Program-made: the position numbers and the translations under genes
The notes under the pieces: model-generated
Told to the model about the DNA's origin: nothing
Databases searched by the model: none
What the model saw: the letters and a program-made list of their open reading frames with translations, nothing else
Source of the DNA: a virus
Strand: one strand, 5' to 3'
IMG/VR virus record: IMGVR_UViG_3300018059_000546
Length of the DNA: 64,000 nucleotides
Shown here: positions 15,270 through 44,581 of the stretch, piece by piece
Numbering within the stretch: the stretch's first letter is position 1
How the letters are laid out: every line of letters starts with the position of its first letter

Positions 15270-15623
15270 TCATGTTCTTCCGTAATCGTCCTGGTGGCGC
15301 ACAACATCATCGAGCTCTGGAGTCGAGACTTCGAAGACTGTGCAAGTTTCGAGCGCTTCCATTCGGTGGATCTGTCCGGGCAGCACGCGGACGCTATCTC
15401 CTGCGACTAGCTCCATGACGTGAAGTCCTGTGTCCTTCTCATCGAGAAAAAAACGCATCCGCCCTTCTTGGAGGTAGATAGTTTCATCCTTGACGTTGTG
15501 GTGTTGCAGGCTGAGCTTGTGTCCCGCGTTGATGTACAAAATCTTTCCGACGTACTTGTCGGTGGAAGCCCAGAGGATCTCGTACCCCCACGGTTTAGAA
15601 ACTGTTCCTTGAACTAACTTCAT
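15270..15623 (-). CDS. cupin (mannose-6-phosphate isomerase type II-like)
   Basis: KPWGYE, LSLQHHNVKDE, IHRM, EVSTPELDDVVR. Confidence 0.88.
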   Translation of the reverse strand: MKLVQGTVSKPWGYEILWASTDKYVGKILYINAGHKLSLQHHNVKDETIYLQEGRMRFFLDEKDTGLHVMELVAGDSVRVLPGQIHRMEALETCTVFEVSTPELDDVVRHQDDYGRT

Positions 15624-15951
15624 CTTCCCATTCCTTCCCCAGGTAACGAATTTCGACGGGTCGACCTTCCTTCTTGGCTCGTTCGACTCCACCCTCCATT
15701 CCTCGGCTCATCCCGAGATCGGCATAGACGACTGTCATTTCCGCGACAGGACCCCAGGCCAGCGCAGCTTCGATTCCGAGAGTTCGTTGTTCCGGAATCG
15801 TATCGTCTAAAACTCCCGGTTGCGTGTACAAGAGATGGGAGATCATAGGAGCTTCTCCTCGATTGAGGCAATCTTTCGCAGCACATCGGGCGTACGCGAT
15901 GTTCTTCTTGGTGTCTCCTGCGAAGGGAGACTCTAGGATGACTCTCTTCAT
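15595..15951 (-). CDS. conserved phage protein, nucleoside-deoxyribosyltransferase-like fold
   Basis: VILESPFAG, RGEAP..SHLLY, VYADLGMSRGM motifs. Confidence 0.6.
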   Translation of the reverse strand: MKRVILESPFAGDTKKNIAYARCAAKDCLNRGEAPMISHLLYTQPGVLDDTIPEQRTLGIEAALAWGPVAEMTVVYADLGMSRGMEGGVERAKKEGRPVEIRYLGKEWEDEVSSRNSF

Positions 15952-15973
15952 TGAGATAGTTTCTTCGTCTTTT

Positions 15974-16789
15974 TCATTCTGTCTCCGTTAGCCATTTGGT
16001 GAATTTGAACTCCTGCGGAACTGGTATGTAGTTCTTGTCGCGACCATATCGTTCGGGCCTTCGTAGAAAATCTACTTCTTCGTGGCCAGAAATCCGAGGG
16101 CACTCGATAGGTTCGAACTTGTCGCCATCCAGGATTTTCTGAAGAAGTTCAAAATGACGTTCGTACACGTGGAACGAATCTGCGATGTGAAAGTAATTTC
16201 CGTACTGCAAATTTGGATACGCCGCCTTCATCGTGTTGAACATCATCTCATGGATGAAGCTGAAAGCCGGCGCGTCGTTCCCCATTCCGAAAACAGCATC
16301 CTGCGAGCGCATGTGAACGCTCATATTGAGAACGTCGTTTCGAATTCTGAAATTGATAGAGTACGTGCAGGGCACGTCATTAGTATCCGAAAGGAGATGT
16401 TCTCTCGATAGAATCGAAATGCTAGCGCGGCGAGTGTCTTTGTCGCTTATCAAGGACTCGACGCACTTGTCGAACTGGCTAATTTCACCGAATACGTACT
16501 GACCGTAGTTCGAGTTGATAGATCCGTCCTTGTTGACGACATCTCTCCAAATCTTCGCATGCTCGCAGATGGACGTATCGAATCGATCACCCTTCAAATA
16601 CCAAAGGAACTCCCTTTTGCAATATGGAAGACTTAGTTTCCTCGAAGAGAAATTTTGAAATCTAACATAGGGAGGAAGTTCGTAGTTGAAATTTTCGACT
16701 TCAATCACCAATTGATTTCGGGGCGCAACTTTCTGTCCGTGTTTTGACAAGCGATCGAATATCGATCGAAAAACAATCTCATCATTCAT
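15974..16789 (-). CDS. thymidylate-synthase-family dCMP hydroxymethylase (T4 gp42-like)
   Basis: NSNYG, DTRRA, DVPCT catalytic Cys, MRSQDAVFGMGND (Asp at the specificity position, as in gp42 RSNDVVFGFRND), SFHVYERH. Confidence 0.82.
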   Translation of the reverse strand: MNDEIVFRSIFDRLSKHGQKVAPRNQLVIEVENFNYELPPYVRFQNFSSRKLSLPYCKREFLWYLKGDRFDTSICEHAKIWRDVVNKDGSINSNYGQYVFGEISQFDKCVESLISDKDTRRASISILSREHLLSDTNDVPCTYSINFRIRNDVLNMSVHMRSQDAVFGMGNDAPAFSFIHEMMFNTMKAAYPNLQYGNYFHIADSFHVYERHFELLQKILDGDKFEPIECPRISGHEEVDFLRRPERYGRDKNYIPVPQEFKFTKWLTETE

Positions 16790-17730
16790 GCGCAAAACCT
16801 TTCTAGAAAAACTGACTTGTCAGGTTGGTGGTTGAATTCGACATCTGTTATTCGAACTAACTTCAAAATCTTCTTCGCAAACCAATCGTTCTGACTTTGA
16901 TCAGTCTTCCATTTTTGGAGGATCTTTTTATCACGCAAAGAAGAACTTTGTTCGATTTCTAGAATTGGTCTATCAAGTCCATGCCAATAAACTCCGTCAA
17001 ATTGGACGTAGCAATTAGTGGGTTTGATATAGAAATCAATAGGCCAACGACCGTTTACAACGACAGAGCGTTGTATATCAACTACTTCAAAATGTTTCAA
17101 CAAGAATTCGTAAAACTTTTCTTCGTCCTTCGAAGAATGAATTGGTTGAGTTTCTAAAAGAGTTTGGAATCTTCTGGCGTTTACTTCGGGAGTGTGGCCC
17201 ATCTTAATGGTTGTTGGGAGCTGTAAGATACAATCTACTCCGTAATCTCTTTGAACAGTTTCTTTACGTTTTTGTGCTGCGACAACCGAAGACGTTGCTT
17301 TAATGGCTCTTTCAAGAACAGAAGCAATTTCAAATGGCGTGCGTACACCGTGATTTTTCAAAAAAGTTGTTTGAGATTTTTCAACAATTTCAGGAAGTTT
17401 AAACGGGTGGTCGACTCCGTATAGTTCTATCCATGTCGCTTTGCGATTTTCCTTTGCATTTTCAGAAATGCAACTTTCTCTAACGTGAGGAATTAGAGTG
17501 GGTTCTTCAACCCCATATTCTCTCAACAAAGTTGACTTCATCTTTTCTCGAAGCGGTTGTCCTTTGCGGTAACCGATCTTTTTGCACTCTTTTGAACAAA
17601 AATGTATAGCGTCTATACCCCCACTAGCATAGTGAGGTCGTTCAAAGTTTGTTTTGCAGATTTCGCACTTTAGGACGACGACGATTCGTTTTCGAGCAGA
17701 ATTAGTTTGTCGATATTCAACTACGCTCAT
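16786..17730 (-). mobile_element. homing endonuclease, Vsr/DUF559-like C-terminal domain with YGV repeats
   Basis: CxxC/FCSxxC, YGV repeats, WPIDFYI..VQFDGVYWHGLDRP; AT-rich. Confidence 0.8.
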
Positions 17731-18662
17731 TCTTTATCACCGAACATCCACTGCCGGGTCTTCTCTACACCCTCCCAGAAGGGGACCAAGACCTTGTATC
17801 CGAGCACGTCCTGGGCTCTTGAGATGTCTGCTCTTGTTCTAAAAACGTCGCCCTTGCGAGCAGGAGCATTTACAACTTGACAATTGGAATAGCGTTCACG
17901 AAACCATGCAAGAATTTCGTTGTTCGTTACGATCGTCCCAGTTCCTGCATTAAACGCTTCTCCTACAAATTTTCCTTCGTAGATAGCGCATCGATACATG
18001 ATGTCGACGACATTGTCGACGTATGTTACGTCGCGAGATTGTTCCCCCGTTCCGTCTGAACGAAGTTGACGCCCATCTTTTACAGCACCGAACCATGCAG
18101 CAACAGCCGTAGCGTAAGGACTATCTCCACGACTATTCGGACCGAACACATTGAATGGTCGAACCGAAACCGTGTCCATCCCGTACAATTCTGAAAACAG
18201 CTTACAATATTGTTCTGTAACGCTCTTTTGTAGCGCATACGGCGACGACGGAGCATGAATCGTATGTTCGGGCGTCGGAAGTCTGGTAGCGTTTCCGTAC
18301 ACCGACGAGGAGGACGTATTGACAAAACGGCGGATATTTCCTCTGGCGGCTTCCATCAATTTCAGAGTTTTGCTGACGTTCGTATCGTTTGTTTCGAACG
18401 GATGTTCGACGGAATACCCAACCCGAGGTTTCGCTGCAAGGTGAAAAATGACGTCGAATTTCTTAGCTCGAACCATATCGCAGACGAAATCGGAGGCGAA
18501 ATCCTGGATGTAGTAGTTCTCGAATCCTTCAGGGAGGAACCCGATTTCTCCCGCAGACATGTCGTCTACGCCAGTTACGTCCCATCCCTCATCAAGCATT
18601 CTCTTCGTGAGGTTACTCCCGATGAATCCTGCACAGCCCGTGATCAAACAGCGTCTAAGCAT
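17727..18662 (-). CDS. NAD-dependent nucleotide-sugar epimerase/dehydratase (extended SDR)
   Basis: TGCAGFIG, HLAA, SSSSVYG, YALQK, RPFNVFGP. Confidence 0.93.
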   Translation of the reverse strand: MLRRCLITGCAGFIGSNLTKRMLDEGWDVTGVDDMSAGEIGFLPEGFENYYIQDFASDFVCDMVRAKKFDVIFHLAAKPRVGYSVEHPFETNDTNVSKTLKLMEAARGNIRRFVNTSSSSVYGNATRLPTPEHTIHAPSSPYALQKSVTEQYCKLFSELYGMDTVSVRPFNVFGPNSRGDSPYATAVAAWFGAVKDGRQLRSDGTGEQSRDVTYVDNVVDIMYRCAIYEGKFVGEAFNAGTGTIVTNNEILAWFRERYSNCQVVNAPARKGDVFRTRADISRAQDVLGYKVLVPFWEGVEKTRQWMFGDKE

Positions 18663-26547: not shown

Positions 26548-28770
26548 TTACCACTTGACAGACTTGACGAGCACCTGGTAGTTCAGAGTAGCACCAGCAG
26601 ATCGAGTCAGATAGAACCCGAACCCATTCTTCCCTTGCGAAAGAACTGACATGGGAACTCCTCCGGTAGGTCGGATCGTGACAAATCCGGTCGTGGCATT
26701 CGTGTTCAGAACTTCTACACCCCACATGCTAGAGATAACATGTCCTCTGAGATCAATCACCATTTCCTGCCACGACAGGTCGACGTTAGCATGAGCATTA
26801 GTCAAAATGACGCTGGCAACGAACGAAGTCTGGTTACTGAACGTTGTTCTAGTCTGAACCGTCATGGCGTACGTTCCTGCAGGAACGTCCATTCCTGTTG
26901 CAACGACCTTCTTCACGGAGATACCTTGGTCTCCTGGAGCTTTCGCGGTCGTATGCGTGGGCACAATGTTCGGAACGGCTGTCGGAGAAGGAACCGGCGT
27001 GGGGGTTGGAACGGGAACCGTTGGAGCTCCCGAAACCCAACCAGCATTCAAGAATGGCAGCAGGAAATTTCGAAGATCGTATGCAGTTCCCGTAGTTCCA
27101 GAGTCGGCATCGTAGTGAGTCCCGGACTTCTCGATGAGAGTGACAGGAAACCCATTGCTGCGGAGAGCTGTCATGTTCGTCCTCGTCGCAGCGATTGGAT
27201 ACGTTGCATCCGACAAGTGCGCCAAATGAGCAATGTTGACCTTCCAACCTGCAGTTTGAGATGCTGTGAAAGCAGAACTATTCGGTGTAGTATTCTCAAA
27301 AATTCCACCCGCGAACAAGTTCGCATTCGTGAACAACAAAGGATACCCGATGTCACCACCTGAAGAGTAACCTCCGAGATAGACCTGTTTCGGGTCGATG
27401 TTGAAATGTGTCTTCATGTCTGCGATTGCAGCCAGAATCTTCGGGCCGTCTGTGGCCATATTCGACCAGCAAGCACCCTCACGACCGCCGACTGCGACGC
27501 TGATCCAGTTCTGACCCGTTACGTAGGATACCATCGACACATCGTACTGGCTCTGCCCACCGCAACCATGGAGCCAAACGAACATCTTCGTCGGAGTTGC
27601 ATGAGAACTATCGTACGACGTTGGAACGTAAACCCAGTAGTTGCTCTGGGGAGTGGTGAGAGTGAAGACCGTGTTTTTGGTAAAGGGTACGGGATTCGTC
27701 GGAACAGATCCTCCCGGAGGGAGAGATGTCGGGACCGGAACCCCCGTGAAATCTCCCGGATTTTGCAACGGAGCCATGAATGGTTTTAACCACGAAATCT
27801 TCACGTTGTCCGTCACGTAGTTGTTCGTTGGGCAAATGGTGAAGGTGTTACCTCCCCACCAGGCCGGAGGTCCGTAACCCCACCAAGCCCATCCCATCAT
27901 AACGTCAGAATTTGCTGCGATGTAGCTACACGCAGAGGCGACTGCTGCGGCGGAGGTCGAGGTCGCAGAAGAAGCTGCGAATTCGCTGAGGTGCACCTTG
28001 AAACCCCTCGTGCGAGCCCAATCAACGACTGGTTGGAGTCGTTGTGCCATGATGTTGGTAGAAACGACGTCATTCGCGCCGCCACCACCAGCAGCGTCGA
28101 AGTAACAATGAACTGACACGACGAGATTTTTCAAAGGATCGTTCAGAGACGACCATGCTGTTGCGTTCGAAACTTTCGTAGTCGCTGTATCGTACCACGA
28201 ATCGTTCCACGACTGGGGCGCTGAGAAACCATTACCATCGACGAAGATCATGGCCGTCGAACCTGTAGACCTGATCCCGGTGATCGCCGTCTGCGCAGCA
28301 GAGAACCACTGGGTGGTGCTCATGTTGTTCGGTTCGTTGGAAAGTCCCAACGCAACGCGGGGATTAGACTTGTAGATAGCTGCGACCTTCGTCCAAAAAT
28401 CTGCGAACGCACTATTCGGGACAGCAGCGCTGCCGACAAGGTCTCCCTTGTACTTAGCAAAATTTCCAAAGGACGCGCCGTGGGGTTCAATGAGAACATA
28501 CAGGCCCTTACTGGTAGCGTAATCAACTCGAGCTTTCAGCGTGGCCCCATATCCTGTCGTAAGAACCGGGCCGTTCAACGTGGGTTGTAAGAGCTCCCAC
28601 GAAAAGACAAGACGGATGAAGTTGAAACCTTTTGTGGCAAGGTAGTCGATGTCTTGGTTGGACACGAACATGTAGTTCTGTCCTTCGACGGGATTCGGGG
28701 TCGAACCCCAATCCCACTCTGCGCCCGCACAGTTAGCTCCGGTCAGGACTGGAAATGCTCTAGTTGCCAT
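26548..28770 (-). CDS. modular GH5 endoglucanase + alpha/beta-hydrolase esterase + CBM-like domain
   Basis: GH5: GANCAGAE, RLVFSWE, NEP, HCYFD, LSEF, WAWW. Esterase: WLHGCGG, GGYSSGG. Pro/Thr linkers and a beta-rich C-terminus. Confidence 0.88.
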   Translation of the reverse strand: MATRAFPVLTGANCAGAEWDWGSTPNPVEGQNYMFVSNQDIDYLATKGFNFIRLVFSWELLQPTLNGPVLTTGYGATLKARVDYATSKGLYVLIEPHGASFGNFAKYKGDLVGSAAVPNSAFADFWTKVAAIYKSNPRVALGLSNEPNNMSTTQWFSAAQTAITGIRSTGSTAMIFVDGNGFSAPQSWNDSWYDTATTKVSNATAWSSLNDPLKNLVVSVHCYFDAAGGGGANDVVSTNIMAQRLQPVVDWARTRGFKVHLSEFAASSATSTSAAAVASACSYIAANSDVMMGWAWWGYGPPAWWGGNTFTICPTNNYVTDNVKISWLKPFMAPLQNPGDFTGVPVPTSLPPGGSVPTNPVPFTKNTVFTLTTPQSNYWVYVPTSYDSSHATPTKMFVWLHGCGGQSQYDVSMVSYVTGQNWISVAVGGREGACWSNMATDGPKILAAIADMKTHFNIDPKQVYLGGYSSGGDIGYPLLFTNANLFAGGIFENTTPNSSAFTASQTAGWKVNIAHLAHLSDATYPIAATRTNMTALRSNGFPVTLIEKSGTHYDADSGTTGTAYDLRNFLLPFLNAGWVSGAPTVPVPTPTPVPSPTAVPNIVPTHTTAKAPGDQGISVKKVVATGMDVPAGTYAMTVQTRTTFSNQTSFVASVILTNAHANVDLSWQEMVIDLRGHVISSMWGVEVLNTNATTGFVTIRPTGGVPMSVLSQGKNGFGFYLTRSAGATLNYQVLVKSVKW

Positions 28771-29305
28771 ATGTGTTTTCTGCTGCCTCTAACGTGAAAA
28801 GGATCTCTGTAACCATCTTGTCCGGATTCCATTCATCAAATTCGAATGTTAGAACCCGACACTTCGACCACTTAGCAAATTCGTCGTACTTTCGAGAAAT
28901 ACTTTCTAGCATATCTGCACCCAGTCTTGGATCATCATCTGTGACACCTGCATACGACTTTCTCTTCAAAACGATTACGATCGCAGGAATTTCCGCGAAC
29001 AGAGCGTCTGACGCTCGAATACCTTTTTCGTCGGTTTCTCTTCCAAGAGCTTGGGAATACACCCATTCAGACGGATATTGACGGTCAATTACGACCGACT
29101 GCTTAGTCTGTTTGAAGATTTCAACCACATAAGGATCAGAGATGCGTAGCATCAAAGATGTCATATTGCTACCGGTCAAAGCTTCCTTGTCTCGAGAGTA
29201 CTTGAAATAGGGAATATTGAGCTTTTCAGCCAACAGCTTACCAACCGTGGACTTGCCAGATCGATCTGCCCCTTCCATGATTAAAACGAGTTGCTTATTT
29301 CCCAT
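28760..29305 (-). CDS. deoxynucleoside monophosphate kinase (candidate hm-dCMP kinase)
   Basis: EGADRSGKST P-loop, IDRQYPSEWVYS. Confidence 0.8.
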   Translation of the reverse strand: MGNKQLVLIMEGADRSGKSTVGKLLAEKLNIPYFKYSRDKEALTGSNMTSLMLRISDPYVVEIFKQTKQSVVIDRQYPSEWVYSQALGRETDEKGIRASDALFAEIPAIVIVLKRKSYAGVTDDDPRLGADMLESISRKYDEFAKWSKCRVLTFEFDEWNPDKMVTEILFTLEAAENTYGN

Positions 29306-29355: not shown

Positions 29356-29619
29356 TCATTTGATGAACTTGAGCAACCGAGAGTTGAACCATGCCTGCCC
29401 TTCGATCTCTTTCTCATGAATCATCATTTTTTCGACACCGCCGGACGAATTTAGGACTACGAGATCGTACAGATTCCCGTCCTGCATGTGAGATTCGTAC
29501 ACAGCACAAATTTCTAACAGAAGCAGCAACTTTCTCTCAGGGGAAGGATTCGTCGGAACGGTGGCTCGTACCTCTATCACCACTCCCGGTTTGAGAGTTT
29601 CATTCAATCTTCCCTGCAT
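29356..29619 (-). CDS. hypothetical protein
   Basis: Start uncertain (29607 or 29619). Confidence 0.5.
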   Translation of the reverse strand: MQGRLNETLKPGVVIEVRATVPTNPSPERKLLLLLEICAVYESHMQDGNLYDLVVLNSSGGVEKMMIHEKEIEGQAWFNSRLLKFIK

Positions 29620-30682
29620 CAATGCTTCCTTGGGTGATACGCCCGTCGGCAACACCGCTAATCGTATCAACTTTTCTAGCAGGACTAAAATCCCCCAACT
29701 TTCTAAGTTCTTGCAGCTGCCTTCCCACAAGGTCACGACGTGCCTCTTGGCTCATCCCCTTCAGATACGTTACTTTACCAATGACATCGTTCGGAGAATC
29801 GATCAGCCAGTCACCCAGGCCCACCGGCGCAAGGTGCTTGTGTTCGACCGGAGTGAGACACGGAATTCCTGTGAGAATCGATTCGTAGATACGAGAAGTG
29901 ACGAACCCGTGTTCGTAGTACTCCTTCTTTGCAAGGTTCGTCGTGCAAATGGAATTTGCCATCATGCGCATGCCGTCCCTGTACGAGAGGCGGGGGCCGA
30001 AATCAACGCACTTGAACTTTCTGAGGATCTCTTCGGGAGATTCTCTTTCACTGGATCTCTCGAGCCAGTTGCCGTGAACTAACGTTTGAATGCCGCGGTC
30101 TCTGAGCTCAACCGCGCAAGCGCCGTAGTACTTCAAGAACTGATCTGTTCTCTCGTAATTGTTACCCAAGTAGCAGTAAGCGATCGGACTGACCGGGGTG
30201 TCGTAGTACGGAACGAAGTCCGTGACCCAATTGAGGCGTATTCTTTTACGGAGGATATGGCTGTGGGAGACCGTCGGTTCACCGATGATCATCCTATTCC
30301 ATCGGAACTCGTCTTCTGGTCTAATCTTCATATCCGTATCAAAGACGATGATGGGTGTCCCGCGTTTATGGTACTCGTTCATCAGCTGGGTCTGACGACT
30401 CCAGTCCGTATCGACGGGATTGGGACCGCTGTTCCGAGCCATCGGCCATCTCCATTCGAAATACGCCACGTCTACTTCGGGTACCTCAACCGATTCGTAA
30501 GTCACTCCCGGATACGGGACAGCTTCTCGACGATCTTGAACAAGGACGAGAGAATGACCTCTCTTCTTGAATTCTTCGACGAGGAGATGTCGTTCTCCGA
30601 CAGCCGAGAAAAGGGTGGTAGCGGTTCCAGCAGCAGCCTCGGGCTTTAGAAGCTCCCCCCAAAATGCGAACGCGATTTTCAT
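29600..30682 (-). CDS. GT-B glycosyltransferase resembling T4 DNA beta-glucosyltransferase
   Basis: MKIAF start; C-terminal ICTTNLAKKEYYEHGFVTSRIYESIL parallels BGT IIGDKNYNDNFITLRVWETMA. Confidence 0.75.
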   Translation of the reverse strand: MKIAFAFWGELLKPEAAAGTATTLFSAVGERHLLVEEFKKRGHSLVLVQDRREAVPYPGVTYESVEVPEVDVAYFEWRWPMARNSGPNPVDTDWSRQTQLMNEYHKRGTPIIVFDTDMKIRPEDEFRWNRMIIGEPTVSHSHILRKRIRLNWVTDFVPYYDTPVSPIAYCYLGNNYERTDQFLKYYGACAVELRDRGIQTLVHGNWLERSSERESPEEILRKFKCVDFGPRLSYRDGMRMMANSICTTNLAKKEYYEHGFVTSRIYESILTGIPCLTPVEHKHLAPVGLGDWLIDSPNDVIGKVTYLKGMSQEARRDLVGRQLQELRKLGDFSPARKVDTISGVADGRITQGSIDAGKIE

Positions 30683-31372: not shown

Positions 31373-31560
31373 TTCTTAGAACCTTTTCCAATGAGCCTGA
31401 GGGCTTCTGTCGCAATAGAGTCGTCGAACTTCGTGTCGAATTCGATCGTGTCCTGAAATTGCATTTCGATGCCATCGTAGACAGCTATGTGTACGGTCAC
31501 TTCGTACCAGTTCGAATGTTTCACAGATCGGACGGCATGTCCTTTCATGGGAATGATCAT
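31369..31560 (-). CDS. hypothetical protein
   Basis: ATGA-coupled to dnaE. Confidence 0.55.
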   Translation of the reverse strand: MIIPMKGHAVRSVKHSNWYEVTVHIAVYDGIEMQFQDTIEFDTKFDDSIATEALRLIGKGSKK

Positions 31561-34500
31561 GCTACTTCGCTTCTTGTTAGGGTCGTAAGTTCCATCAGAT
31601 CCTTCTTGAGCGTGAAACCGAAGTCCGTCTTCTCGACGACCGCGATGTACGCAGTGTTGTTCTTAGGGATGTCATTCTCGTTGGTGAGGTTCCAACAGAA
31701 CATCCTATTGATCATCCCGTTCTCTCCCACGATGTCAAGTCGAACGTAGGGTTTCGAAGTTGCCTTGGTGTAGCACATCGACCCCTTCATGACGATGAAC
31801 CAAGCCGCTTTGCGCTTGCCATCCGTGGGAACATCATCGATAGAGTGAATGCCTTTATCGAGGAGTAAGCTCCGCATGTCAGGAGATACCAGAGAAAGAG
31901 GAGACACACTTCCGCTGAGTTCTCGATGGAACTCGGCTTTTTCCTGCGGAGCCCAATCCGGAATTTCTCTTGTCTGCATGATGAACTTCTCAAGACGATC
32001 CTTCGGTTCGAGAGAACGATCAGGGGCAGACAAGTCGGGTCCCGTCCCGGGGGCGTATATCTTCGGTTTTTTCAGCTTCTTAGCCTTCAACCCTTCCATG
32101 TTCTCCACGAGAACATGGTGCATGTGACGGTAGTGGACAAATGGTTTACCCTTTCCGACGAGATCTATCGAATCGAACGCCTCAACCTTGATGAGTCCGT
32201 CAAGAACTCTCTTGTTGAACTTCGAATGCTTCCACTCACCGGTCTCTGTCCACAGGAGATCGTTCACATCCTTGTAGGGACGCAACCTTTCAATCTCTTC
32301 GACAGCGGCTTCACCGACGCCTTTCAAGGATGTGAACGACGGATAGAAAGTGTCTCCGCTCTTAGAGAGAGTCCAATCGTTTCCCGATTCGTTGATATCA
32401 ACCTTGCCGATCTTGTAACTGAGCTTACGAACGTCTGTAGAAGCTCTCGCCTTCGATTCGTCATCGTTGGACATCGATTGCAGGTATGTGCAGAGCCATT
32501 CAGGTTCGTAGTACGTCATGAGCCACGCGCACTGGTAGGAAAGCACAGAGTACGTCAAGCTGTGGGAATAGTTGAATGCGTACTTTGCGAACGCTGCGAT
32601 ATCGTCGAACAACTTCTGTGCGATTTTCTCTTCGAGACCGTTCGCAATCGCTCCTGTGACGAACTGTTTTCCAAGTTCGATAGCTTCTAGGGCCTTCGAG
32701 TCGATCTTGTCGACAGACCTCTTCAGAAGAGCCTTGCGAAGTTTGTCGCAATCTCCATGTGACATTCCTGCGAGTTGGTTCGCAAGCTGGATGATCTGCT
32801 CCTGATAGACGATAAATCCGAACGTGGTCTCCAACAAACTGTCGATGACAGGGTGGTCGTACTTCTTGATTTCTTTCTCTCGACGAGCCTTGATGATGAG
32901 CTTGTCGACTTTCGCTGCGAGCGGTCCGGGACGGTAGATCGCAGTGGCCATCGAAAGATCCTGCACGTTTCGAGGAGCGAAATCGTGGATGTACTTCTGG
33001 GTCTGAGGATTTGTGTACTGAAAGATGCCGGCGAATCTTCTAGTTTCGAACACGTGGTCGTAGACCTTCGGGTCGGACATCTCTCCGAGAGCCGCAGGGT
33101 GCAAGTTCTTCTCGTACCATGACTTGATATCTTCCCATGTGGGATTCGGATTGTTATGATGCCTCCGCAGGATCATCCTGATAGTATCTTCAAGCATCCG
33201 CAAAGTCTCAATACCGAGAATGTCGCTCTTCACGAATCCAAGCGGTTCGAGGCAGTGCATGTTCATGCCCTCGGGCCAAGGAGATCTCACCTCTCCCTTG
33301 ATGAAGATCAGGGGCATCTTTTCATCGAGGTCCTCGCAAATGACGACGCCCGAGGCGTGCTTTCCGATCGCTCGATTCTGCTTGTACAAAATCTTGATTG
33401 GTGCAGCTACTTGCGGATACTTGCCCATGAAGTCCCTGAATTTCTCGGAGAACTCCATGCAATCGTCGAACTTCAAGGAAAACAAGCTCTTGTTTTCTCC
33501 GTCGTTCGCTTTTGGCATCACCTCTTCGAGAAGATCTTTTGTGACATCGTTGACCTCTTCAAAGTCAATTCCATGAAGTTTTGAAAGATCCTTCACCAGA
33601 GACTTCAACTGAAGCGTGAGGAAGTTAGAAATCGGAACGACGTTTCTGGTTCCTGCTTTGTCTCTCAGGAGATCGAGAAGCTTGTTTCTATCAGAAACGT
33701 CGTTATCGATATCGGGCGTGTCGTTACGAGCGGGACTGATGAATCGTTCGAACATCAATCCGTACTTCAGGGGATCGATCTGCGTGATTCCCAAAACGTA
33801 ATTGACCAACGAACCGGCTCCAGAACCTCGGCCTGCACCGACGAGCATGTTATCGTAGGCGATATCCATGATGATCTTGGTGAGGAGAAAGTACTGCGAG
33901 AAATTCTTGTCCTTGATGATCGTCAGCTCGTACTTGAGCCGCTGCATGTACTCCTTTTTGCCCCAGAGATTTTTCTGTTGCATTCCGGTCTTGCAGTTCT
34001 CGTACAACGCTTCGAATGGCATTTGCCCAGGTGGGACGACGAACGATGGAAGTTTAATTCCCGTGTCCATCTTGATCGGATTGATCATATCATGGGCGAT
34101 GTCGTGCGTACGTTCGATCGCAGCGCGGACAGTTTCATCATCGTAGAACGGCATACCATTACAGTACTCGTTGTACGAATCCCACATCTGCCCAGCATTC
34201 TTCGGGTACAGCTCGCACTTCAACGCTTCCTTGGACTTGGGAAGCATATCAGGATTGATCTCTTCGTATCGAAGGCGACCCAACTTCTTGTAGATCTCTC
34301 TTTCGAGCCACAGTTCAGGTCGGCAGTAGTGAGAATCAGCTGCGGCAGTGAGTTTGATTCCCGTCTTGTTAGACATCTCAATGAGAGCCCGATTGACAAG
34401 ATGTTGCGGAGCGAGTTTATTGAACTGCAGCTCGGCGAATACGTTTTCTTCACCGACAGCGTCAACGATGGGATCGAATGCTCTTGCGAGTTCTTCCTGA

Positions 34501-35174
34501 ACCTCTCTCATCTTGGACGGATCGTCCAACAGCTCATGTTTGAGCTCGTCGAAAGGAACACCCTGGAACTTATCTAAGGTAGCGTACGCTCCGAAACCAC
34601 CGATGCACGCCGAGGTCACGATGATATCTTCGCCGTGCTCTTTCAACATCTTAGCATCGATTCGAGGAAACCTGTACATGCCCTCGATGTTAGCTCTTGA
34701 AACTAGCTTGAAGAGATTTTGGCGACCCTTGTCACTCTTAGCGAGGAGCACCATGTGGTGGCGTCTATTGACAGGATCTCTCCACTTGGAAACGTTCTTC
34801 GTTTCGTCTTCGTTCTCTGTCGTAGAGGCGTCGCTCTCATCGGATTCTTTAGCAAGTTTCTTCGACTCTTTCTTCGCGTCCTTCTTAGCTTCTTCCTTCT
34901 CGAACTTCTGCTTGCGCCAGTCTTCGAGACTCGGATGGTAGTACGCCTCGCATCCTGCGATTTGTTTGAACTCCCTTCCCTTCTTTTTCAGATCTTCAGA
35001 CTTGAGATAAGCCTGCGCAAAGGAGTTACAATTCCCATGTTCTGTGAAAGCCATCGCATCCATCCCGTTTTCAAGACAGAAGTCGATGTGCTCCTCAACG
35101 GGCCCGAGCCCATCGCTGATCGAGGCATGTGTGTGGCTGTGGAGATTAACGAACCTCTTCGGACTATCGCTCAA
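31557..35174 (-). CDS. dnaE: DNA polymerase III alpha subunit (family C)
   Basis: PHP LHSHT..S..DG, GRGSGAGSLV, FERF, PDIDND, KSDILG, VYQEQ, YAFN.SH. Confidence 0.96.
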   Translation of the reverse strand: MSDSPKRFVNLHSHTHASISDGLGPVEEHIDFCLENGMDAMAFTEHGNCNSFAQAYLKSEDLKKKGREFKQIAGCEAYYHPSLEDWRKQKFEKEEAKKDAKKESKKLAKESDESDASTTENEDETKNVSKWRDPVNRRHHMVLLAKSDKGRQNLFKLVSRANIEGMYRFPRIDAKMLKEHGEDIIVTSACIGGFGAYATLDKFQGVPFDELKHELLDDPSKMREVQEELARAFDPIVDAVGEENVFAELQFNKLAPQHLVNRALIEMSNKTGIKLTAAADSHYCRPELWLEREIYKKLGRLRYEEINPDMLPKSKEALKCELYPKNAGQMWDSYNEYCNGMPFYDDETVRAAIERTHDIAHDMINPIKMDTGIKLPSFVVPPGQMPFEALYENCKTGMQQKNLWGKKEYMQRLKYELTIIKDKNFSQYFLLTKIIMDIAYDNMLVGAGRGSGAGSLVNYVLGITQIDPLKYGLMFERFISPARNDTPDIDNDVSDRNKLLDLLRDKAGTRNVVPISNFLTLQLKSLVKDLSKLHGIDFEEVNDVTKDLLEEVMPKANDGENKSLFSLKFDDCMEFSEKFRDFMGKYPQVAAPIKILYKQNRAIGKHASGVVICEDLDEKMPLIFIKGEVRSPWPEGMNMHCLEPLGFVKSDILGIETLRMLEDTIRMILRRHHNNPNPTWEDIKSWYEKNLHPAALGEMSDPKVYDHVFETRRFAGIFQYTNPQTQKYIHDFAPRNVQDLSMATAIYRPGPLAAKVDKLIIKARREKEIKKYDHPVIDSLLETTFGFIVYQEQIIQLANQLAGMSHGDCDKLRKALLKRSVDKIDSKALEAIELGKQFVTGAIANGLEEKIAQKLFDDIAAFAKYAFNYSHSLTYSVLSYQCAWLMTYYEPEWLCTYLQSMSNDDESKARASTDVRKLSYKIGKVDINESGNDWTLSKSGDTFYPSFTSLKGVGEAAVEEIERLRPYKDVNDLLWTETGEWKHSKFNKRVLDGLIKVEAFDSIDLVGKGKPFVHYRHMHHVLVENMEGLKAKKLKKPKIYAPGTGPDLSAPDRSLEPKDRLEKFIMQTREIPDWAPQEKAEFHRELSGSVSPLSLVSPDMRSLLLDKGIHSIDDVPTDGKRKAAWFIVMKGSMCYTKATSKPYVRLDIVGENGMINRMFCWNLTNENDIPKNNTAYIAVVEKTDFGFTLKKDLMELTTLTRSEVA

Positions 35175-35470: not shown

Positions 35471-36463
35471 TCAGAAATTCTGATCGAGCTCGATCGAAAA
35501 ATAGTCGATCGTACGCCTGATTCCTTCTTCGAAGGAAATCTCCGGATTCCAGCCTAGAACTTCTTGAGCAACTTTGATCGTAGGATTCCTACGCTTAGGA
35601 TCGTCCTGTGGAAGCGGGAGATAGGTCACCTTCGAAGTGGAACACATCGTTCGAACGATGAACTCGGCAGCTTCTCCAATTGTTCTTTCTTGCGGGTTTC
35701 CAAGGTTGATCGGAAAAGAATGCGGTTCGTCCTTGTGGAGGTAAGAGATGATTCCTCGAACGAGGTCGTCCACGTAGCAAAAACTCCTAGTTTGGGTTCC
35801 GTCTCCGTAGATCGTGATATCTTGTCCACAGAGAGCTTGGACCACGAAATTAGAAACTACTCGACCATCGTCGACCTGCATTCGCGGTCCGAAAGTATTG
35901 AATATCCGAACGACTCGTACATCGTGCCCCCTTTGAAGATGTTCGTAGCAGATAGTTTCTGCGACGCGCTTCCCTTCGTCGTAATTCGCTCGCGGACCCC
36001 ACGTATTGACGTGACCCTTGTACGATTCCTCCTGCGGATGAACCTCAGGATCTCCGTAGATTTCGCTCGTAGAAGCGTGAAGAACTCTGGAACCCAGGGC
36101 TGCGAACTTCATCGCAGTTTTCGTGCCCACGTAGCATGTATCCAGAGTTCCCATCGGGTCTTTTTGGTAGGCGACTGGTGAAGCGGGACAGGCGAGATTG
36201 AAATATGCGAAGGGTGCTTCACCTCGAGTGAAAGCTAGAACCTTTTCAACCAGAGTGGGTGAACACACATTCTCTTGGATCGTCCACAGAATTTGTCCCT
36301 TCGCAGATGCGAGAATAGATGCTTCGTCAAGATTCTTCCATCGACCTGTGCAGAGATTATCCACGCAGACGACATCGAAACCTTGTTCTATGAGAGAAAG
36401 AGTCAAGTGACTGCCGATGAATCCGGCTGCGCCGGCGATGACCGCGATTTTTCTAGAACTCAA
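35471..36463 (-). CDS. UDP-glucuronate decarboxylase (UDP-xylose synthase family)
   Basis: GAAGFIGSHL, NLACPASP..YQ.DP, STSEIYGDP, GPRANYDEGKR, RIFNTFGPRM..DDGRVVSNF, DDPKRR. Confidence 0.93.
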   Translation of the reverse strand: MSSRKIAVIAGAAGFIGSHLTLSLIEQGFDVVCVDNLCTGRWKNLDEASILASAKGQILWTIQENVCSPTLVEKVLAFTRGEAPFAYFNLACPASPVAYQKDPMGTLDTCYVGTKTAMKFAALGSRVLHASTSEIYGDPEVHPQEESYKGHVNTWGPRANYDEGKRVAETICYEHLQRGHDVRVVRIFNTFGPRMQVDDGRVVSNFVVQALCGQDITIYGDGTQTRSFCYVDDLVRGIISYLHKDEPHSFPINLGNPQERTIGEAAEFIVRTMCSTSKVTYLPLPQDDPKRRNPTIKVAQEVLGWNPEISFEEGIRRTIDYFSIELDQNF

Positions 36464-36957
36464 GATACCTCTTCGAGAAACCATCTAGATCTCGATTCGC
36501 CGATGGATTTCATCTGTTCTCGAAAGATCTGTCCTCGAATCATGAGGAACACGTGCGAATCAGACGTACTCGGAACCGATTTGCGACCAACGCAAGTGAC
36601 AATTTCGCCCGCGACCAGCGTCTGCCGTTGAATTTCTATCGCTCCAGCAAATGGAGGGCAATCTTTGACCTTGTAGGAGTTACCCAAACGAAACTTTTGC
36701 TTCACATCTACATCCTCTCGAAGAAAATGAATAAGATTGTCTCTCTCACCATTCTTGAGCCTGACCATGGAGTTGCCGAAGCTCCCGTTCATGATGTTGA
36801 GGTAAGCTTCCAGGAAATCCTCGTCTGTGAAGTTGCCCTTCAGGATCGTCGCTATTTCCCTGGCTTCGGAACAGTACTCGTCGAAGGGAGCTCCCATGTG
36901 GATCAAACCCATGGGGTCGACCAACGCGATCGCTCGTTCAATCTTATCAGGTGTCAC
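36460..36957 (-). CDS. hypothetical protein
   Basis: DPMGLI..GAP.DEY..EA motif; coupled. Confidence 0.6.
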   Translation of the reverse strand: MTPDKIERAIALVDPMGLIHMGAPFDEYCSEAREIATILKGNFTDEDFLEAYLNIMNGSFGNSMVRLKNGERDNLIHFLREDVDVKQKFRLGNSYKVKDCPPFAGAIEIQRQTLVAGEIVTCVGRKSVPSTSDSHVFLMIRGQIFREQMKSIGESRSRWFLEEVS

Positions 36958-39079: not shown

Positions 39080-39882
39080 TCTGTGACTCCGATCATATTG
39101 CTGTCTGGAGAACCGTAGTCAGAATTTCCGACGACAACTCTCAGGTTAGGGCGAATCGCTATGTCTGAAAAGGAATGTGTGTGGCCACACAGAACCGTGA
39201 AATTGATTGCGGGATGTTTTTCTGAAAGAAGAGACAAAGCTTCTCCCATCATCCTTGATGAGTACCACGGCAACGCGTGCTCATGTGTGCGTTGTCCCCT
39301 GTAGAAGCAAGATTCTGCGAAGGGAGGAAAATGGGTGAGCATGATGATTTTAGTTCGTCCATCATCGATCGCTTTGTTGCATGCATTTTCGATGTGGGTC
39401 ACAGCGCCTGCTGCGAGCTTTCGCGCGGTCGACACGACATTGTGAAGATTGCCACTGAACTCTTCGGTTCTAAACCAATCATTCATTACGAACCGAGACT
39501 TCTTAGGATCTCCGTTCAGCGCGTCGTACCATCCGTCATGGCCGACCAACGCAATGCTCTCTCCGAATGGGACGTACTCCACTCCGCCCAACCAAACGAT
39601 CCCATCCTTTGCAAGATCGCCTTTCAAAATTTCTTTACGAATTTCTACAATAGAACCATCCCAAAAATCGTGGTTTCCACAAACGAACCACAATGGCATT
39701 TCAAGATGTTCTCGAAGAGTTCGTAAACTTGCAAAAAGGATCGGTGCTAACGCAATGTCACCCGTTATAAGGACACCTTCGCAATCAATATTGTTTTGCT
39801 TGACTTTTTGACACCATTCAATGATTTGAGACTGGCCTAAACAATCAAGATGAATGTCTGTCATCCAAACAAATTTCGCCAT
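39076..39882 (-). CDS. calcineurin-like metallophosphoesterase
   Basis: TDIH, TGDI, GNHD, THFPP, GHTH. Confidence 0.92.
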   Translation of the reverse strand: MAKFVWMTDIHLDCLGQSQIIEWCQKVKQNNIDCEGVLITGDIALAPILFASLRTLREHLEMPLWFVCGNHDFWDGSIVEIRKEILKGDLAKDGIVWLGGVEYVPFGESIALVGHDGWYDALNGDPKKSRFVMNDWFRTEEFSGNLHNVVSTARKLAAGAVTHIENACNKAIDDGRTKIIMLTHFPPFAESCFYRGQRTHEHALPWYSSRMMGEALSLLSEKHPAINFTVLCGHTHSFSDIAIRPNLRVVVGNSDYGSPDSNMIGVTE

Positions 39883-40673
39883 GTTCCATCCTTGAAAACA
39901 AATTCTGTAATTCTGATCAACTTTAACCCTTTTTGCGTGAACCATTCTTCTTGATAACGATCAAAAATCCATTTCTGATGGATTCCAATGTCTCGGCTTG
40001 TTTTGCCCTGTTTGATTTCATCTAGAGGACGATCTAAACCGTGCCAATATGCGCCGTCATATTGAACGAATGTGTCAATTTCGGGAATGTAAAAATCGAT
40101 CGGCCAATTTGAATTGACTACCACGTGCCGATGAACATCGTCAAATATTTCAACTAATTCATCGAACATAGCATCTTCATGGGAAGATTTTTTGTATCCT
40201 CCAAAAAGTTTTCTTGTTTCATGGCCTTTCTTCCAAATTGCAGGACATTGCAACGGTTCACTAACACCAAATCTTGCTTGGCAAGTGGTTCGTCTTTTTC
40301 CCTTGACTATTTCAGATTGAAATGTATGTTCTACGCCATAATTTCGCAGAGTTGTTTCTTTCTTTTTAAGTTGCGACTGCGGCGATTTGTCGACGATTTT
40401 TTGTCGAATTTTTTGATCTTTCAACGGATGAATTACACCGTAATTTTGAAGAAATGTTTGTTCTTTCTTCAAATGAAGAAGACCACTAATTTGTGAACGT
40501 GTAACGCACGTAGTTGAACAAAAATGATGTTGTTCATTCACTTTCTTCTTCATGAACCTCCGGTGAAACAACAATCTACATTCATCGCATTGTAACTCTA
40601 ATACACGATGAAATTTTGGACCTTTCGATTCGGGTGGTCGATTATTCGAGATCGAAATCGTAGAAATATACAC
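39861..40673 (-). mobile_element. homing endonuclease, Vsr/DUF559-like with YGV repeats
   Basis: CDEC..FCSTTC, YGV repeats, WPIDFYI..VQYDGAYWHGLDRP. Confidence 0.8.
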
Positions 40674-41757: not shown

Positions 41758-41773
41758 GTTGTGAAGAGTGATG

Positions 41774-42253
41774 TTAGTAACCCGTATTGATCCTTCGCAC
41801 GTTCTCAAGGCCCTTCTTCATGTACGCTGCGAAGAGTTCTTCCTTAGAGATTCCGGATGCGATTACGATCTCAAGATAGAAGTGTAGAGCATCTGAAAGT
41901 TCTTCGATGTACTCTTCCCTATCGACAGATCCCACGTCGGCGGCCCGATGATCCTTCTGTTTAAGGTGTTGACGGGCTTCGTGGAGCTCGTCCGCACATT
42001 CGTAACTGATTTGTTTGAGAAACTTCTGTCCTGCTTTGGAAGTGAGATCGACCGGAAATTCCGGAAATCCTCTTTTCTCTCGAAGCAAGTTCATGAATGA
42101 TTTCTGTTGTTCCCAAATCGCATCGAAGCGATCGATTTTCTCGTTAGCATCCATGAAGTCCTTGCAATCGCATTGCCCGCAGGCAAAAAAAGCACCGGGC
42201 ATCACAACGTGATCGCTCTCGGTGTGCTTACACTTACACACCGGATCGCTCAT
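41774..42253 (-). CDS. all-alpha dNTP pyrophosphatase (dimeric dUTPase / T4 gp56 dCTPase-like)
   Basis: DELHEA...EELSDALHF...YMKK...N..RI..GY. Confidence 0.82.
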   Translation of the reverse strand: MSDPVCKCKHTESDHVVMPGAFFACGQCDCKDFMDANEKIDRFDAIWEQQKSFMNLLREKRGFPEFPVDLTSKAGQKFLKQISYECADELHEARQHLKQKDHRAADVGSVDREEYIEELSDALHFYLEIVIASGISKEELFAAYMKKGLENVRRINTGY

Positions 42254-42498: not shown

Positions 42499-42656
42499 TT
42501 GTTTTCTTTCTTGTTTGGGTAGATCTTCGGAAATTTGTCCCGAATAGTCTCAAGGTACTTCACTACGTCTTCGGGAGGAGTGTCGCCGACATCGACCTCG
42601 TACACAACGTGGTCGGGTGTCGAAAGACCGGGACGAAAATGAGGATTGTCTGTCAA
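42495..42656 (-). CDS. 53-aa protein resembling a gp20 portal segment (not in ORF track)
   Basis: TTGA and ATGA overlaps at its two ends; VYEVDVGDTPPEDVVKYLETIRDKF. Confidence 0.6.
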   Translation of the reverse strand: MTDNPHFRPGLSTPDHVVYEVDVGDTPPEDVVKYLETIRDKFPKIYPNKKENK

Positions 42657-42907: not shown

Positions 42908-43173
42908 TTTCCTTGGAGGACCTGTCGAATCGATTGGACGAGCTCTTTCGGAAGAGCTGACATTTTCACGTAGCTCTCTACGTTCAAGTTGACCTCTGGG
43001 ATATTAGCACCTTCGTGCACGGTTAGACTCTGGGTTGGAACGAGAAAGAACGCATAGTCAGGAGCATTCTCATCGCAAGTCTTGATGATGGGAGTAGATA
43101 GAGACGTGATTGTGTCCGCATCTCGATCGTCGTACAAATGACTTGTACGTTGGTTGTAGTCTCTTGTCGTCAT
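42904..43173 (-). CDS. hypothetical protein
   Basis: Coupled. Confidence 0.6.
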   Translation of the reverse strand: MTTRDYNQRTSHLYDDRDADTITSLSTPIIKTCDENAPDYAFFLVPTQSLTVHEGANIPEVNLNVESYVKMSALPKELVQSIRQVLQGK

Positions 43174-43758
43174 TTAGAACCTAAACTCTCGGAGGATTTC
43201 TCTGAAGGTATCATCCGGATTGTCTGCGACGTAGATGTCGGTGACTTCCGTATATTGATTCCTCCAGGTCCGTGAATTGTAAAACGCAGCCACTGTTTTT
43301 TGCAAGGAATCGTCCTTCTCATAGATGTCACGAGGAACCTCTCTGAGCGTTGGATTTCCTGATAACAGGAATACCTGGTCCGGCTTCACAAGCATCTTGG
43401 ACATGATTCTGATGACAGAGGAAGGTACACCTGTAGCAAGACCGTACGCTTGCATCGACAGGTCCCATCGGTCCATGATGATGACATCCATTTCACGCTT
43501 GAGTTTAGCAAGGCGGCCGTACTGGAAATGCATCTTGTTGATGAACTGCATCACCTGAAAGAGCATAGGGTGCTCCAGAGCCCAACCGCTTTCTAGAGTC
43601 CGATAGATGTCAGCGTAGAAAACAGATTCCATGTCGGGACTCTTGATGTAACACGCCCGAAATCCCGAGTCTTCAAGATATTTGAGAAGTCGTTTGGCGT
43701 GGGTTGTTTTTCCCGCAGAATCGCATCCTTCGAGACTAACAAGGCAACAAATTTTCAT
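43174..43758 (-). CDS. tmk: thymidylate kinase
   Basis: EGCDSAGKTT, IMDRW..S..AYG, KPD, DIYE. Confidence 0.88.
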   Translation of the reverse strand: MKICCLVSLEGCDSAGKTTHAKRLLKYLEDSGFRACYIKSPDMESVFYADIYRTLESGWALEHPMLFQVMQFINKMHFQYGRLAKLKREMDVIIMDRWDLSMQAYGLATGVPSSVIRIMSKMLVKPDQVFLLSGNPTLREVPRDIYEKDDSLQKTVAAFYNSRTWRNQYTEVTDIYVADNPDDTFREILREFRF

Positions 43759-43931
43759 TTTTGAATTCCAAGATCTATTCCTCGAACGATCGCTTCTTCG
43801 ATGAGAAATCTGGACATTGTGTCGTTTGCTGACGAACTCTCGCAGGTCAGATGAAACTCGTACTCGTCAACTAGTTGTTTATCGTCTAATTTTTTGACAA
43901 ATTCCAAAAGAAGTTTTTCAACTGTGTTCAT
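43755..43931 (-). CDS. 58-aa hypothetical protein (not in ORF track)
   Basis: MNTVEKLLLEF...GIQK; ATGA overlaps at both ends. Confidence 0.55.
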   Translation of the reverse strand: MNTVEKLLLEFVKKLDDKQLVDEYEFHLTCESSSANDTMSRFLIEEAIVRGIDLGIQK

Positions 43932-44581
43932 TCAAATGGCTCTCTGATTCTACCATCTATAGTAAGCCCGAAGGCCTCCAAAGACATGGAGAAGTTCTGT
44001 AACTCCGACACTTGCTGAAGCATCTTACGAGCCAAATTTCTGACTTCTAACTGAGCATGTTTCGAATATCGCAGGCGAAGAAAATGAACGAAGCTCCGAA
44101 AGTTGAACATGACGTCCGCCGTCAGTTGGTTTCCGTACGGAATGTAGAGACGAGCAGATTCTTTGGCTCTCTTTCTGTTCATCCCTTTGGCGACGAGACG
44201 TTCGATCGCATCGTGGTACTTCTTGAGACAACCCTCCATGTGCTCAATGTACAGGAGTTGCTCGGCTCCGTCCCAATCCACGGGAACGTAGAATTTGTCG
44301 TCCTTGAGTTCTTTGTACCGAGCAGATTCCGCGTTCACAGACACACCCACCCGGTGCTTGATCAAGTGAATATGGGTTGCAACGTCCGTTGTGACGAGAA
44401 AATGGATGCTCGATTTTTCGAACGGCGTTTCATGGGCATTCGAAGCGAGCATCGTAAGAAGACCCTTGATGCGACATCTTTTATCGTCAGTCAGATCTCT
44501 TGACGTGCTGGTCCATGCTGACAAGGCATGGGTTTCGTCTCCACCGTAGGTACCAATCAACTCGACGAGGTTGTCATTCAT
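43928..44581 (-). CDS. thyX: flavin-dependent thymidylate synthase
   Basis: HETPFE, KHRVGVSVNAESARY, ESAR, NFRSF.HFLRLR..HAQLEVR. Confidence 0.93.
   Translation of the reverse strand: MNDNLVELIGTYGGDETHALSAWTSTSRDLTDDKRCRIKGLLTMLASNAHETPFEKSSIHFLVTTDVATHIHLIKHRVGVSVNAESARYKELKDDKFYVPVDWDGAEQLLYIEHMEGCLKKYHDAIERLVAKGMNRKRAKESARLYIPYGNQLTADVMFNFRSFVHFLRLRYSKHAQLEVRNLARKMLQQVSELQNFSMSLEAFGLTIDGRIREPFE

Follow-up and report, generated by a model that had tools for sequence, protein, structure and literature searches.

A predicted hydroxymethylcytosine glycosylation cassette in DnaE-type jumbo phages, with UDP-xylose synthase as a possible pentose source

Sugar-coated cytosines are a major defense of phages against restriction enzymes and CRISPR nucleases, and bacteria, in turn, deploy modification-dependent nucleases and glycosylases against them. 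To our knowledge, all characterized cases come from T4-like phages or from members of the Pootjesviridae. The T4 pathway to glucosylated 5-hydroxymethylcytosine (hmC) consists of the dCTPase gp56, the dCMP hydroxymethylase gp42, the kinase gp1, and the alpha- and beta-glucosyltransferases. Arabinosyl-5-hydroxycytosine has been described in the DNA of phages RB69, DLP3, and HY126 (PMC13326640) and a pentosylated cytosine in that of the Shewanella phage Thanatos (PMC12838424); all these recent pentose examples are built on 5-hydroxycytosine (5hoC) (PMC13326640). A hexosyl-5hoC gene cluster is known from the Rhizobium phage RL38J1 and the Pootjesviridae (PMC13326640). The thymidylate synthase (TS) homologs of RB69, DLP3, Thanatos, and RL38J1 were reported in 2026 to make 5-hydroxy-dCMP and not 5-hydroxymethyl-dCMP (5hm-dCMP); those of the arabinosyl-5hoC phages carry the D169N replacement and work with flavin and O2 (PMC13326640). 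The pentose is activated there either from ribulose-5-phosphate to UDP-arabinofuranose, by an isomerase, a kinase/pyrophosphorylase, and a phosphatase, or by a UDP-xylose pyrophosphorylase (PMC13326640, PMC12838424). The present analysis deals with a 64,000-nucleotide stretch of viral DNA (IMG/VR record IMGVR_UViG_3300018059_000546; hereafter, the window) from an uncultivated DnaE-type jumbo phage of ~350 kb, which encodes a TS homolog, a GT-B-type glycosyltransferase (GT), a nucleotide kinase, and a UDP-glucuronate decarboxylase (UDP-xylose synthase, UXS).

Comparison of the window with 49 related loci, onto each of which the window proteins were mapped, points to a T4-style replacement of cytosine followed by glycosylation of the DNA, with xylosyl- or L-arabinosyl-hmC as the likeliest product (probability of about 0.55). 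That the DNA carries some glycosylated form of hmC is, on the grounds of comparative genomics, highly probable, whereas the nature of the sugar as a pentose, xylose or L-arabinose, is an evenly balanced call. A broader proposal can be put forward only tentatively, at slightly short of even odds: that a widespread clade of DnaE-type jumbo phages shares a single hmC cassette in which the sugar genes are swapped, leading in this lineage to xylosyl- or L-arabinosyl-hmC via UXS and involving a new family of GTs that resemble the T4 beta-glucosyltransferase (BGT, family GT63).

In the proposed pathway, each step of which is drawn from homology, a gp56-like pyrophosphatase and a dCMP deaminase would drain dCTP and dCMP, the ThyA-type TS homolog would turn dCMP into 5hm-dCMP, and the Tmk-like kinase encoded beside the GT would phosphorylate it. 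The hm-dCTP would be incorporated into DNA by DnaE, and after replication the BGT-like GT-B enzyme would move a sugar from its UDP-linked form onto the hydroxymethyl group. As to the donor, UXS would convert UDP-glucuronate of the host to UDP-xylose, and a GalE-type epimerase could invert C4 of the latter to give UDP-L-arabinose. It is this combination of UXS with a C4 epimerase that points to xylosyl- or L-arabinosyl-hmC as the likeliest product in the window lineage.

The predicted hydroxymethylase and its conserved cassette

In all 49 loci, the genes for DnaE, the GT, the kinase, and the TS homolog are found within 10 kb, almost always together with that for the epimerase, and the commonest order among the relatives is DnaE-GT-kinase-(TS)-epimerase-(cupin)-TK-dCMP deaminase. 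The DnaE gene, which serves as the syntenic anchor, adjoins the GT gene in all relatives; the GT gene also has a kinase ortholog as an immediate neighbor in each of them, and the epimerase adjoins the TS homolog in nearly all. In every one of the loci with enough flanking sequence (46/46), the GT is located no more than 10 kb from a TS homolog with the L143D/D169/N177D signature (residue numbering of Escherichia coli ThyA). Because the same genes occur together in all these loci, their grouping is not due to chance. Three non-orthologous TS subtypes, all with this signature, share one slot beside the GT: a gp42-like form of about 223-270 aa (loci L004, L009, and L053), a long form of 325-358 aa (about 335) with a C-terminal extension (L005-type loci), and a form of 273 aa similar to that of the Ralstonia phage RsoM2USA (the window and L001, which is RsoM2USA itself). 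The use of the same slot by three subtypes argues for selection on function over inherited linkage alone.

The TS homolog of the window scores 77.5 bits against PF00303 (cut-off 24.3), contains the RSQDAVFGMGND motif, and has the T4 dCMP hydroxymethylase (1b49) as its top match in the PDB, with an E value of 1.5e-21. It was aligned with E. coli ThyA, T4 gp42, and RB69 gp48, all taken from annotated records. The catalytic Cys146 is kept in the window enzyme and is invariant across alignments. Asp is found in the position of ThyA L143 (N-D-V-P-C in the window over S-D-F-M-C in T4) and in that of ThyA N177 (GND over RND in T4 and PFN in E. coli). The segment spanning residues 169 and 177 reads RSQD...D in the window, RSND...D in T4 gp42, and RSQN...D in RB69 gp48, so that position 169 is Asp in the first two and Asn in the RB69 enzyme, a control that came out as expected. 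According to the characterized enzymes, N177D marks the use of dCMP, an acidic side chain in place of L143 indicates that the product is not the methyl derivative, and D169N, present in all tested 5-hydroxy-dCMP synthases, is diagnostic of that activity (PMC13326640). By this published residue rule, the TS homolog is predicted to be a 5hm-dCMP synthase, and the hmC part of the proposal is well supported. Its dCMP specificity had already been proposed, from the Asp residue, in an earlier note made from the letters of this stretch, and the alignment with T4 gp42 agrees with it. A 5hoC synthase was considered and rejected, since D169 is retained; Asp is likewise found at this position in the TS homologs of all relatives examined (46/46).

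The nucleotide-pool genes of the window (Table 1) are of several kinds. The all-alpha NTP pyrophosphatase, a candidate dCTPase, matches T4 gp56 in BLASTP with an E value of 1e-8 and 29% identity, a partial match that covers the C-terminal 65 residues; its homologs are encoded upstream of DnaE in ~24 related loci. The dCMP deaminase gene is syntenic in the relatives. The kinase encoded next to the GT stays below the Pfam cut-offs, and its family profile, when searched against the PDB, comes closest to the SPbeta protein YorR (2axp; 2e-7) and the dNK family, with Tmk also listed; T4 gp1 (PDB entries 1dek and 1del) is not among the matches of that search. The predicted kinase may work like gp1. 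Given that dTMP is made by ThyX, the ThyA-type homolog is free for another role, and, judging by gene content, the supply of dTTP is covered by ThyX, Tmk, dUTPase, dCMP deaminase, and TK. The argument of the earlier note, which cited ThyX, Tmk, and dUTPase, that the second copies are available for another role holds, but the extra kinase resembles Tmk and dNK rather than gp1.

The same note had described the pathway as dispersed. The genes are indeed spread out in the window, but the relatives show one compact cassette, and the scattered appearance is due to homing endonucleases, an intein, a gene of the GH5 family, and other inserts that split it. Thus, the span from the GT to the TS homolog, which is 5.2 kb in L008, reaches 14.7 kb in the window, where it accommodates the GH5 gene, a TnsA-like endonuclease, a helicase intein, two DUF7487 homing endonucleases, ClpP, and small open reading frames (ORFs). 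The epimerase and the TS homolog, separated in the window by one homing endonuclease gene, are adjacent in L008 and L049, which lack such an insert.

Selfish elements were recognized at 16786-17730, 21003-21941, 39861-40673, 25263-26183, 22541-25333, and 51162-52127; the set comprises three DUF7487 homing endonucleases, a TnsA-like endonuclease, a DinG-like helicase intein, and a RecA intein fragment. The GH5 gene (26548-28770, minus strand) codes for a 740-aa member of this cellulase family and sits between the kinase and the helicase within the cassette. It is retained in L057 (12174-14360), an 81%-identical relative, and is absent from more distant relatives. In many relatives, the downstream edge of the cassette carries an IMPDH/GMP-reductase-family gene (14179-15210 in the window, minus strand) and a gene whose product corresponds to Fe/Mn superoxide dismutase in its C-terminal domain alone (10916-11644, minus strand).

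Directly downstream of the hydroxymethylase gene, and overlapping the cupin ORF, is a DUF7768 or nucleoside 2-deoxyribosyltransferase-like gene (15595-15951, minus strand; phrog_355, 3e-20). Its homologs are absent from all 49 related loci, so this gene is specific to the window lineage; dNMPs, whether modified or not, are possible substrates of its predicted product. The earlier note had placed a cupin within a range that began at 15595, where the DUF7768-like gene is located; the cupin gene starts just outside that range. All the genes it listed exist on the minus strand, at or close to where it put them, and the minus strand carries every gene between 11 and 51 kb of the window.

Table 1. 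Coordinates of the predicted cassette and nucleotide-pool genes in the window
Feature	Coordinates	Strand	Evidence
TK	12585-13169	-	window gene
dCMP deaminase (dUMP supply, lowers dCMP pool)	11924..12355	-	PF00383 1.3e-17
Small cupin	15270..15692	-	weak Cupin_2 and MannoseP_isomer matches; phrog_7851 2.5e-22
TS-superfamily enzyme, predicted dCMP hydroxymethylase (5hm-dCMP synthase)	15974..16795	-	PF00303 1.2e-21
Homing endonuclease (DUF7487), between epimerase and TS homolog	16786..17730	-	DUF7487 5.8e-11; phrog_3339 6.8e-18
GalE-family NDP-sugar 4-epimerase (SDR2)	17727..18662	-	PF01370 Epimerase 5.8e-47
Tmk/dNK-like P-loop kinase, predicted hm-dCMP kinase	28760..29305	-	phrog_761 2.9e-13
GT-B glycosyltransferase, predicted hmC-DNA glycosyltransferase (BGT-like)	29600..30682	-	ATG start, 360 aa
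DnaE-type DNA polymerase, syntenic anchor	31557..35174	-	PHP, DNA_pol3_alpha, finger, and HHH_6 domains
UDP-glucuronate decarboxylase (UDP-xylose synthase, UXS)	35471..36484	-	2.3e-90, 306 bits to human UXS1 (2b69)
All-alpha NTP pyrophosphatase, candidate dCTPase (T4 gp56-like)	41774..42253	-	phrog_12184 3e-14; dUTPase_2 C-terminus match
Thymidylate kinase (Tmk)	43174..43758	-	PF02223 9.2e-14, 52 bits
ThyX	43928..44581	-	PF02511 1.3e-33
Trimeric dUTPase	50738..51190	-	PF00692 1.6e-24

Sugar-nucleotide genes and the identity of the sugar

The UXS of the window scores 306 bits against human UXS1 (hUXS1) and no more than 110 bits against epimerases. Its motifs GAAGFIG, ASTSEIYG (with T-S-E), YDEGK, and QTRSF align to those of hUXS1, in which, following the UXS literature, we read GxxGxxG, the catalytic pair T-x-E, YxxxK, and the active-site Arg. 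All this marks the protein as, by its sequence, a genuine UDP-xylose synthase; an ArnA/U4kpxs-type enzyme was rejected, as the respective score is only 72 bits. Orthologs with 44-49% identity are encoded within the GT cassette in L004, L008, L009, L039, L049, and L053, and UXS is also present in L057, a close relative of the window phage. The gene is thus confined to some lineages (~7), and, whenever present, it is found within the cassette: its stop codon overlaps the start of the GT gene in L004 and L008, and it lies just upstream of DnaE in the window and in L053. Positions 7388-12975 of L049 contain a gap-free run of six genes, which code for UXS, a UDP-galactopyranose mutase (GLF) homolog, the kinase, the GT, the 4-epimerase, and the TS homolog. 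With UXS and the mutase in one run, the product would be pushed on to the furanose form there, which suggests a furanose pentose, L-arabinofuranose, as the putative donor in L049. Among the relatives without UXS in the cassette, five large contigs of 205-281 kb, one of which is 92% complete, lack a UXS ortholog along their whole length. Directly upstream of UXS in L039 (5908-7927), an R2K-clade ATP-grasp protein is encoded next to a fusion of GNAT with a Thg1 domain (tRNA-His guanylyltransferase-like), a pair that is odd company for a DNA-modification cassette.

The set of sugar genes that accompanies the GT varies from locus to locus. It consists of the epimerase alone in about 12 loci, the epimerase and the cupin in about 7, and the epimerase, the cupin, and UDP-galactopyranose mutase in about 20, whereas UXS is the distinguishing gene in the loci listed above. 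The cupin has homologs with 28-37% identity in ~25 loci, beside the epimerase in many of them; its AlphaFold2 (AF2) model matched generic cupins only (KdgF, the CapF cupin, and PMI), tied at a Z score of ~14.

The strongest alternative accepts glycosylated hmC but takes its sugar to be a hexose or N-acetylhexosamine (HexNAc), i.e., galactose (Gal), N-acetylgalactosamine (GalNAc), or glucose, supplied by way of the GalE-type epimerase, while UXS serves something else, such as a further sugar that a different transferase attaches or the glycans of the virion or the host surface. A whole group of observations weighs on this side and against a pentose. The epimerase occurs in almost every relative, as opposed to the ~7 lineages with UXS; it is kept where UXS is missing and predates it in the family. 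Its nearest PDB entries (6wjb, WbgU, and WbpP, at ~1e-42) are UDP-GlcNAc/GalNAc 4-epimerases, and Thr, one of the small residues that go with tolerance of HexNAc, takes the place of the gatekeeper Y299, so that UDP-xylose as a substrate of this enzyme is an assumption. The HexNAc-like character of the epimerase and its presence without UXS suggest that the default sugar of the family may be Gal or GalNAc, and its co-occurrence with UDP-galactopyranose mutase in ~20 relatives implies a hexose of the galacto configuration. The GT residues do not vary with the presence of UXS: in the alignment, the 7 UXS-linked GTs cannot be told from the 29 others by any one column, position 113 (V/A versus I) coming nearest to doing so. 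Finally, no source of UDP-glucuronate was found among the scanned window ORFs, which include no UDP-glucose 6-dehydrogenase (PF03721), or beside UXS in L039, L049, and L053, where PF03721 proteins are likewise lacking; the host must therefore supply this precursor.

Despite these points, a hexose or HexNAc in place of a pentose appears unlikely in this lineage, if by no means far-fetched. UXS, when present, is encoded within the GT/TS cassette, often translationally coupled to or in the same operon with the GT; it is found nowhere in the five large UXS-less relatives; and L053 has UXS yet no epimerase within 10 kb. L-Arabinose is the pentose analogue of galactose. The presence of UXS suggests a five-carbon sugar without proving one. 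Thus, of the combination put forward in the earlier note, hmC is backed by the D/D/D signature and by the synteny in 46/46 loci, and the pentose stands as plausible and unproven.

The epimerase itself retains the S124/Y149/K153 triad (in SSSSVYG and YALQK), in columns that are invariant in comparison with E. coli GalE. A 4,6-dehydratase assignment for this second short-chain dehydrogenase/reductase (SDR) was rejected on its motifs, as the Ser/Thr is not followed by the Asp or Glu of dehydratases. A nucleotide-sugar dehydrogenase was identified in L059 (12346-13662), on the contig of the UXS-positive L009 and ~23 kb from its GT. The homologs of this protein are named UDP-GlcNAc/GalNAc dehydrogenase in the source annotations, and it probably belongs to another glycan pathway.

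The glycosyltransferase and its acceptor

The AF2 model of the GT, built from a 37-sequence alignment, has a pLDDT of 92.6 and shows the GT-B fold. The structure search against T4 BGT that the earlier note had called for put this enzyme first in both programs used, by a small margin: Foldseek returned 1c3j at 3e-11, and VIA-align returned 1qkj with a Z score of 22.4 and a root mean square deviation of 3.8 over 307 aligned residues. In an hhalign comparison of the GT profile with BGT, the match had a probability of 84.6% and an E value of 6.8e-6 and was limited to the C-terminal domain, where the family-invariant residues R264 and E267, candidates for the UDP-binding Arg and Glu, align to the FITLRVWE motif of BGT. 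The invariant D115 and D117, candidates for the catalytic base, follow a strand, as does FTD100 in BGT, which contains the catalytic Asp100, with the equivalence of the N-terminal domains judged by eye only. The window GT and its UXS-linked counterparts in L004, L008, and L009 belong to a single clade (support 100/98). The fold, the partial match to the BGT profile, and the strict synteny with the hydroxymethylase support DNA as the acceptor; it is the synteny, in 46/46 loci, that points to hmC-DNA as the predicted substrate.

Neither the 21.5 kb of the window searched with megablast nor the GT searched with tblastn had any match among 50,697 phage records. It follows from the tblastn search that the GT has no ortholog in a cultured phage; its homologs come from metagenomes only, the longest of the contigs that carry them reaching 350 kb.

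Much less probable than a hexose is the option that the GT and the sugar enzymes decorate a protein, lipid, or polysaccharide, with the DNA carrying bare hmC or the TS homolog merely balancing nucleotide pools. This option draws on features of the GT that speak against a role on DNA. The protein had no match in Pfam, PHROG, or NCBIfam, the Pfam models of DNA glucosyltransferases being likewise silent. The GT-B fold is generic, and the lead of BGT over other GT-B families is just ~1.5 Z units, because the next family (PglA and BshA) reaches a Z score of 20.8; GT4-type enzymes are within 1.5-2 units of BGT. The GT is not basic (pI of 6.8, with a family median of 6.1, versus 9.05 for BGT), a GH5 glycanase is encoded beside it in the window lineage, and UXS is present in other phages without a known role in DNA modification. 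On the other hand, the GT is linked to a TS homolog with all three Asp residues and to a nucleotide kinase in 46/46 loci, a linkage that has outlasted several rearrangements and three replacements of the TS subtype. The same neighborhood of polymerase, hydroxymethylase, and GT exists in T4, a Tmk-like kinase is encoded beside the DNA GTs of RB69 and RL38J1, and most relatives lack GH5. The least credible option is that the TS homolog makes another base, be it 5-hydroxy-dCMP (as in RB69 and Thanatos), 5-methyl-dCMP, or 5hm-dUMP, with the sugar linked otherwise or absent: the product assignment does use three signature residues from a limited characterized set (PMC13326640), and the window enzyme is only ~30% identical to T4 gp42, but it keeps D169 where all tested 5hoC synthases, including the aligned one of RB69, have Asn, while N177D speaks against dUMP and L143D against a methyl product.

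If glycosylation of hmC by a UXS-derived pentose is correct, the base, the route to the donor, and the DNA glycosyltransferase family of these DnaE-type jumbo phages would all be new. Many restriction enzymes would fail to cut DNA modified in this manner, its base-calling on nanopore instruments would be difficult, and the enzymes could find use in hmC labeling chemistry. The constant GT/TS core with its varying sugar genes is a natural experiment in the diversification of phage DNA sugars; the main yield of this analysis is a conserved cassette whose sugar modules can be swapped. The literature searched contained no report of xylosyl- or L-arabinosyl-hmC, nothing that links UXS to phage DNA modification, and no description of this jumbo-phage clade. 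The suggestion of the earlier note that xylosyl-hmC would be a new base needs qualification in that pentosylated phage cytosines, on the 5-hydroxy base, have already been published.

Comparison with known systems

The closest TS homolog from a cultured phage, with 59% identity and the same signature, is that of the Ralstonia jumbo phage RsoM2USA (MG752970), where it is annotated only as a hypothetical protein or putative thymidylate synthase. The record features at 7607-8443 and 1890-3020 correspond to this TS homolog and to a distant GT-B protein, RsoM2USA_2, which matches the GT profile with an E value of 4e-8 and is encoded ~5 kb from the TS homolog. An ortholog of the window GT was not found in RsoM2USA by tblastn, nor was UXS, the best SDR match being 23% identical. 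As only the TS homolog is similar, RsoM2USA was rejected as a close overall relative of the window phage; judging by these two genes, its DNA may be hmC-glycosylated.

The resemblance to T4 extends over several components. The TS homolog shares the L143D/D169/N177D residues with gp42, which is also its best solved relative, the pyrophosphatase is gp56-like, and the compact GT-B enzyme has BGT as its best solved match. In T4, too, the polymerase, gene 42, and beta-gt are located side by side. The differences are equally clear: the polymerase of the window phage is of the DnaE type, whereas that of T4 belongs to family B; the kinase is Tmk/dNK-like and not gp1-like; the GT is only ~14% identical to BGT and lacks a Pfam match; and the phage has its own UXS, 4-epimerase, and cupin, none of which is encoded by T4.

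In RL38J1, the genes for GT-B transferases and a TS homolog form one module with those for a Tmk-like kinase and a UDP-galactopyranose mutase, and ~20 relatives of the window similarly carry the mutase beside the GT. Unlike RL38J1, with its D169N-type 5hoC synthase, the window lineage has UXS in place of the mutase.

The systems of RB69, DLP3, HY126, and Thanatos also combine a TS homolog, a Tmk-like kinase, one or more DNA GTs, and phage-encoded pentose activation near the polymerase; in RB69, the Tmk-like kinase, the DNA GTs, and the TS homolog are encoded side by side. The end product in those phages, a pentose on C5 of cytosine, is the same in kind as that predicted for the window phage. 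However, they are T4-like members of the Straboviridae and not DnaE-type jumbo phages. The window enzyme retains D169, and the putative route to the sugar, in contrast to those of RB69, DLP3, and Thanatos, is the decarboxylation of UDP-glucuronate by UXS. Pentosylated phage cytosine is therefore already known in kind, and what the window would add is the hydroxymethyl base and the UXS route rather than a new principle.

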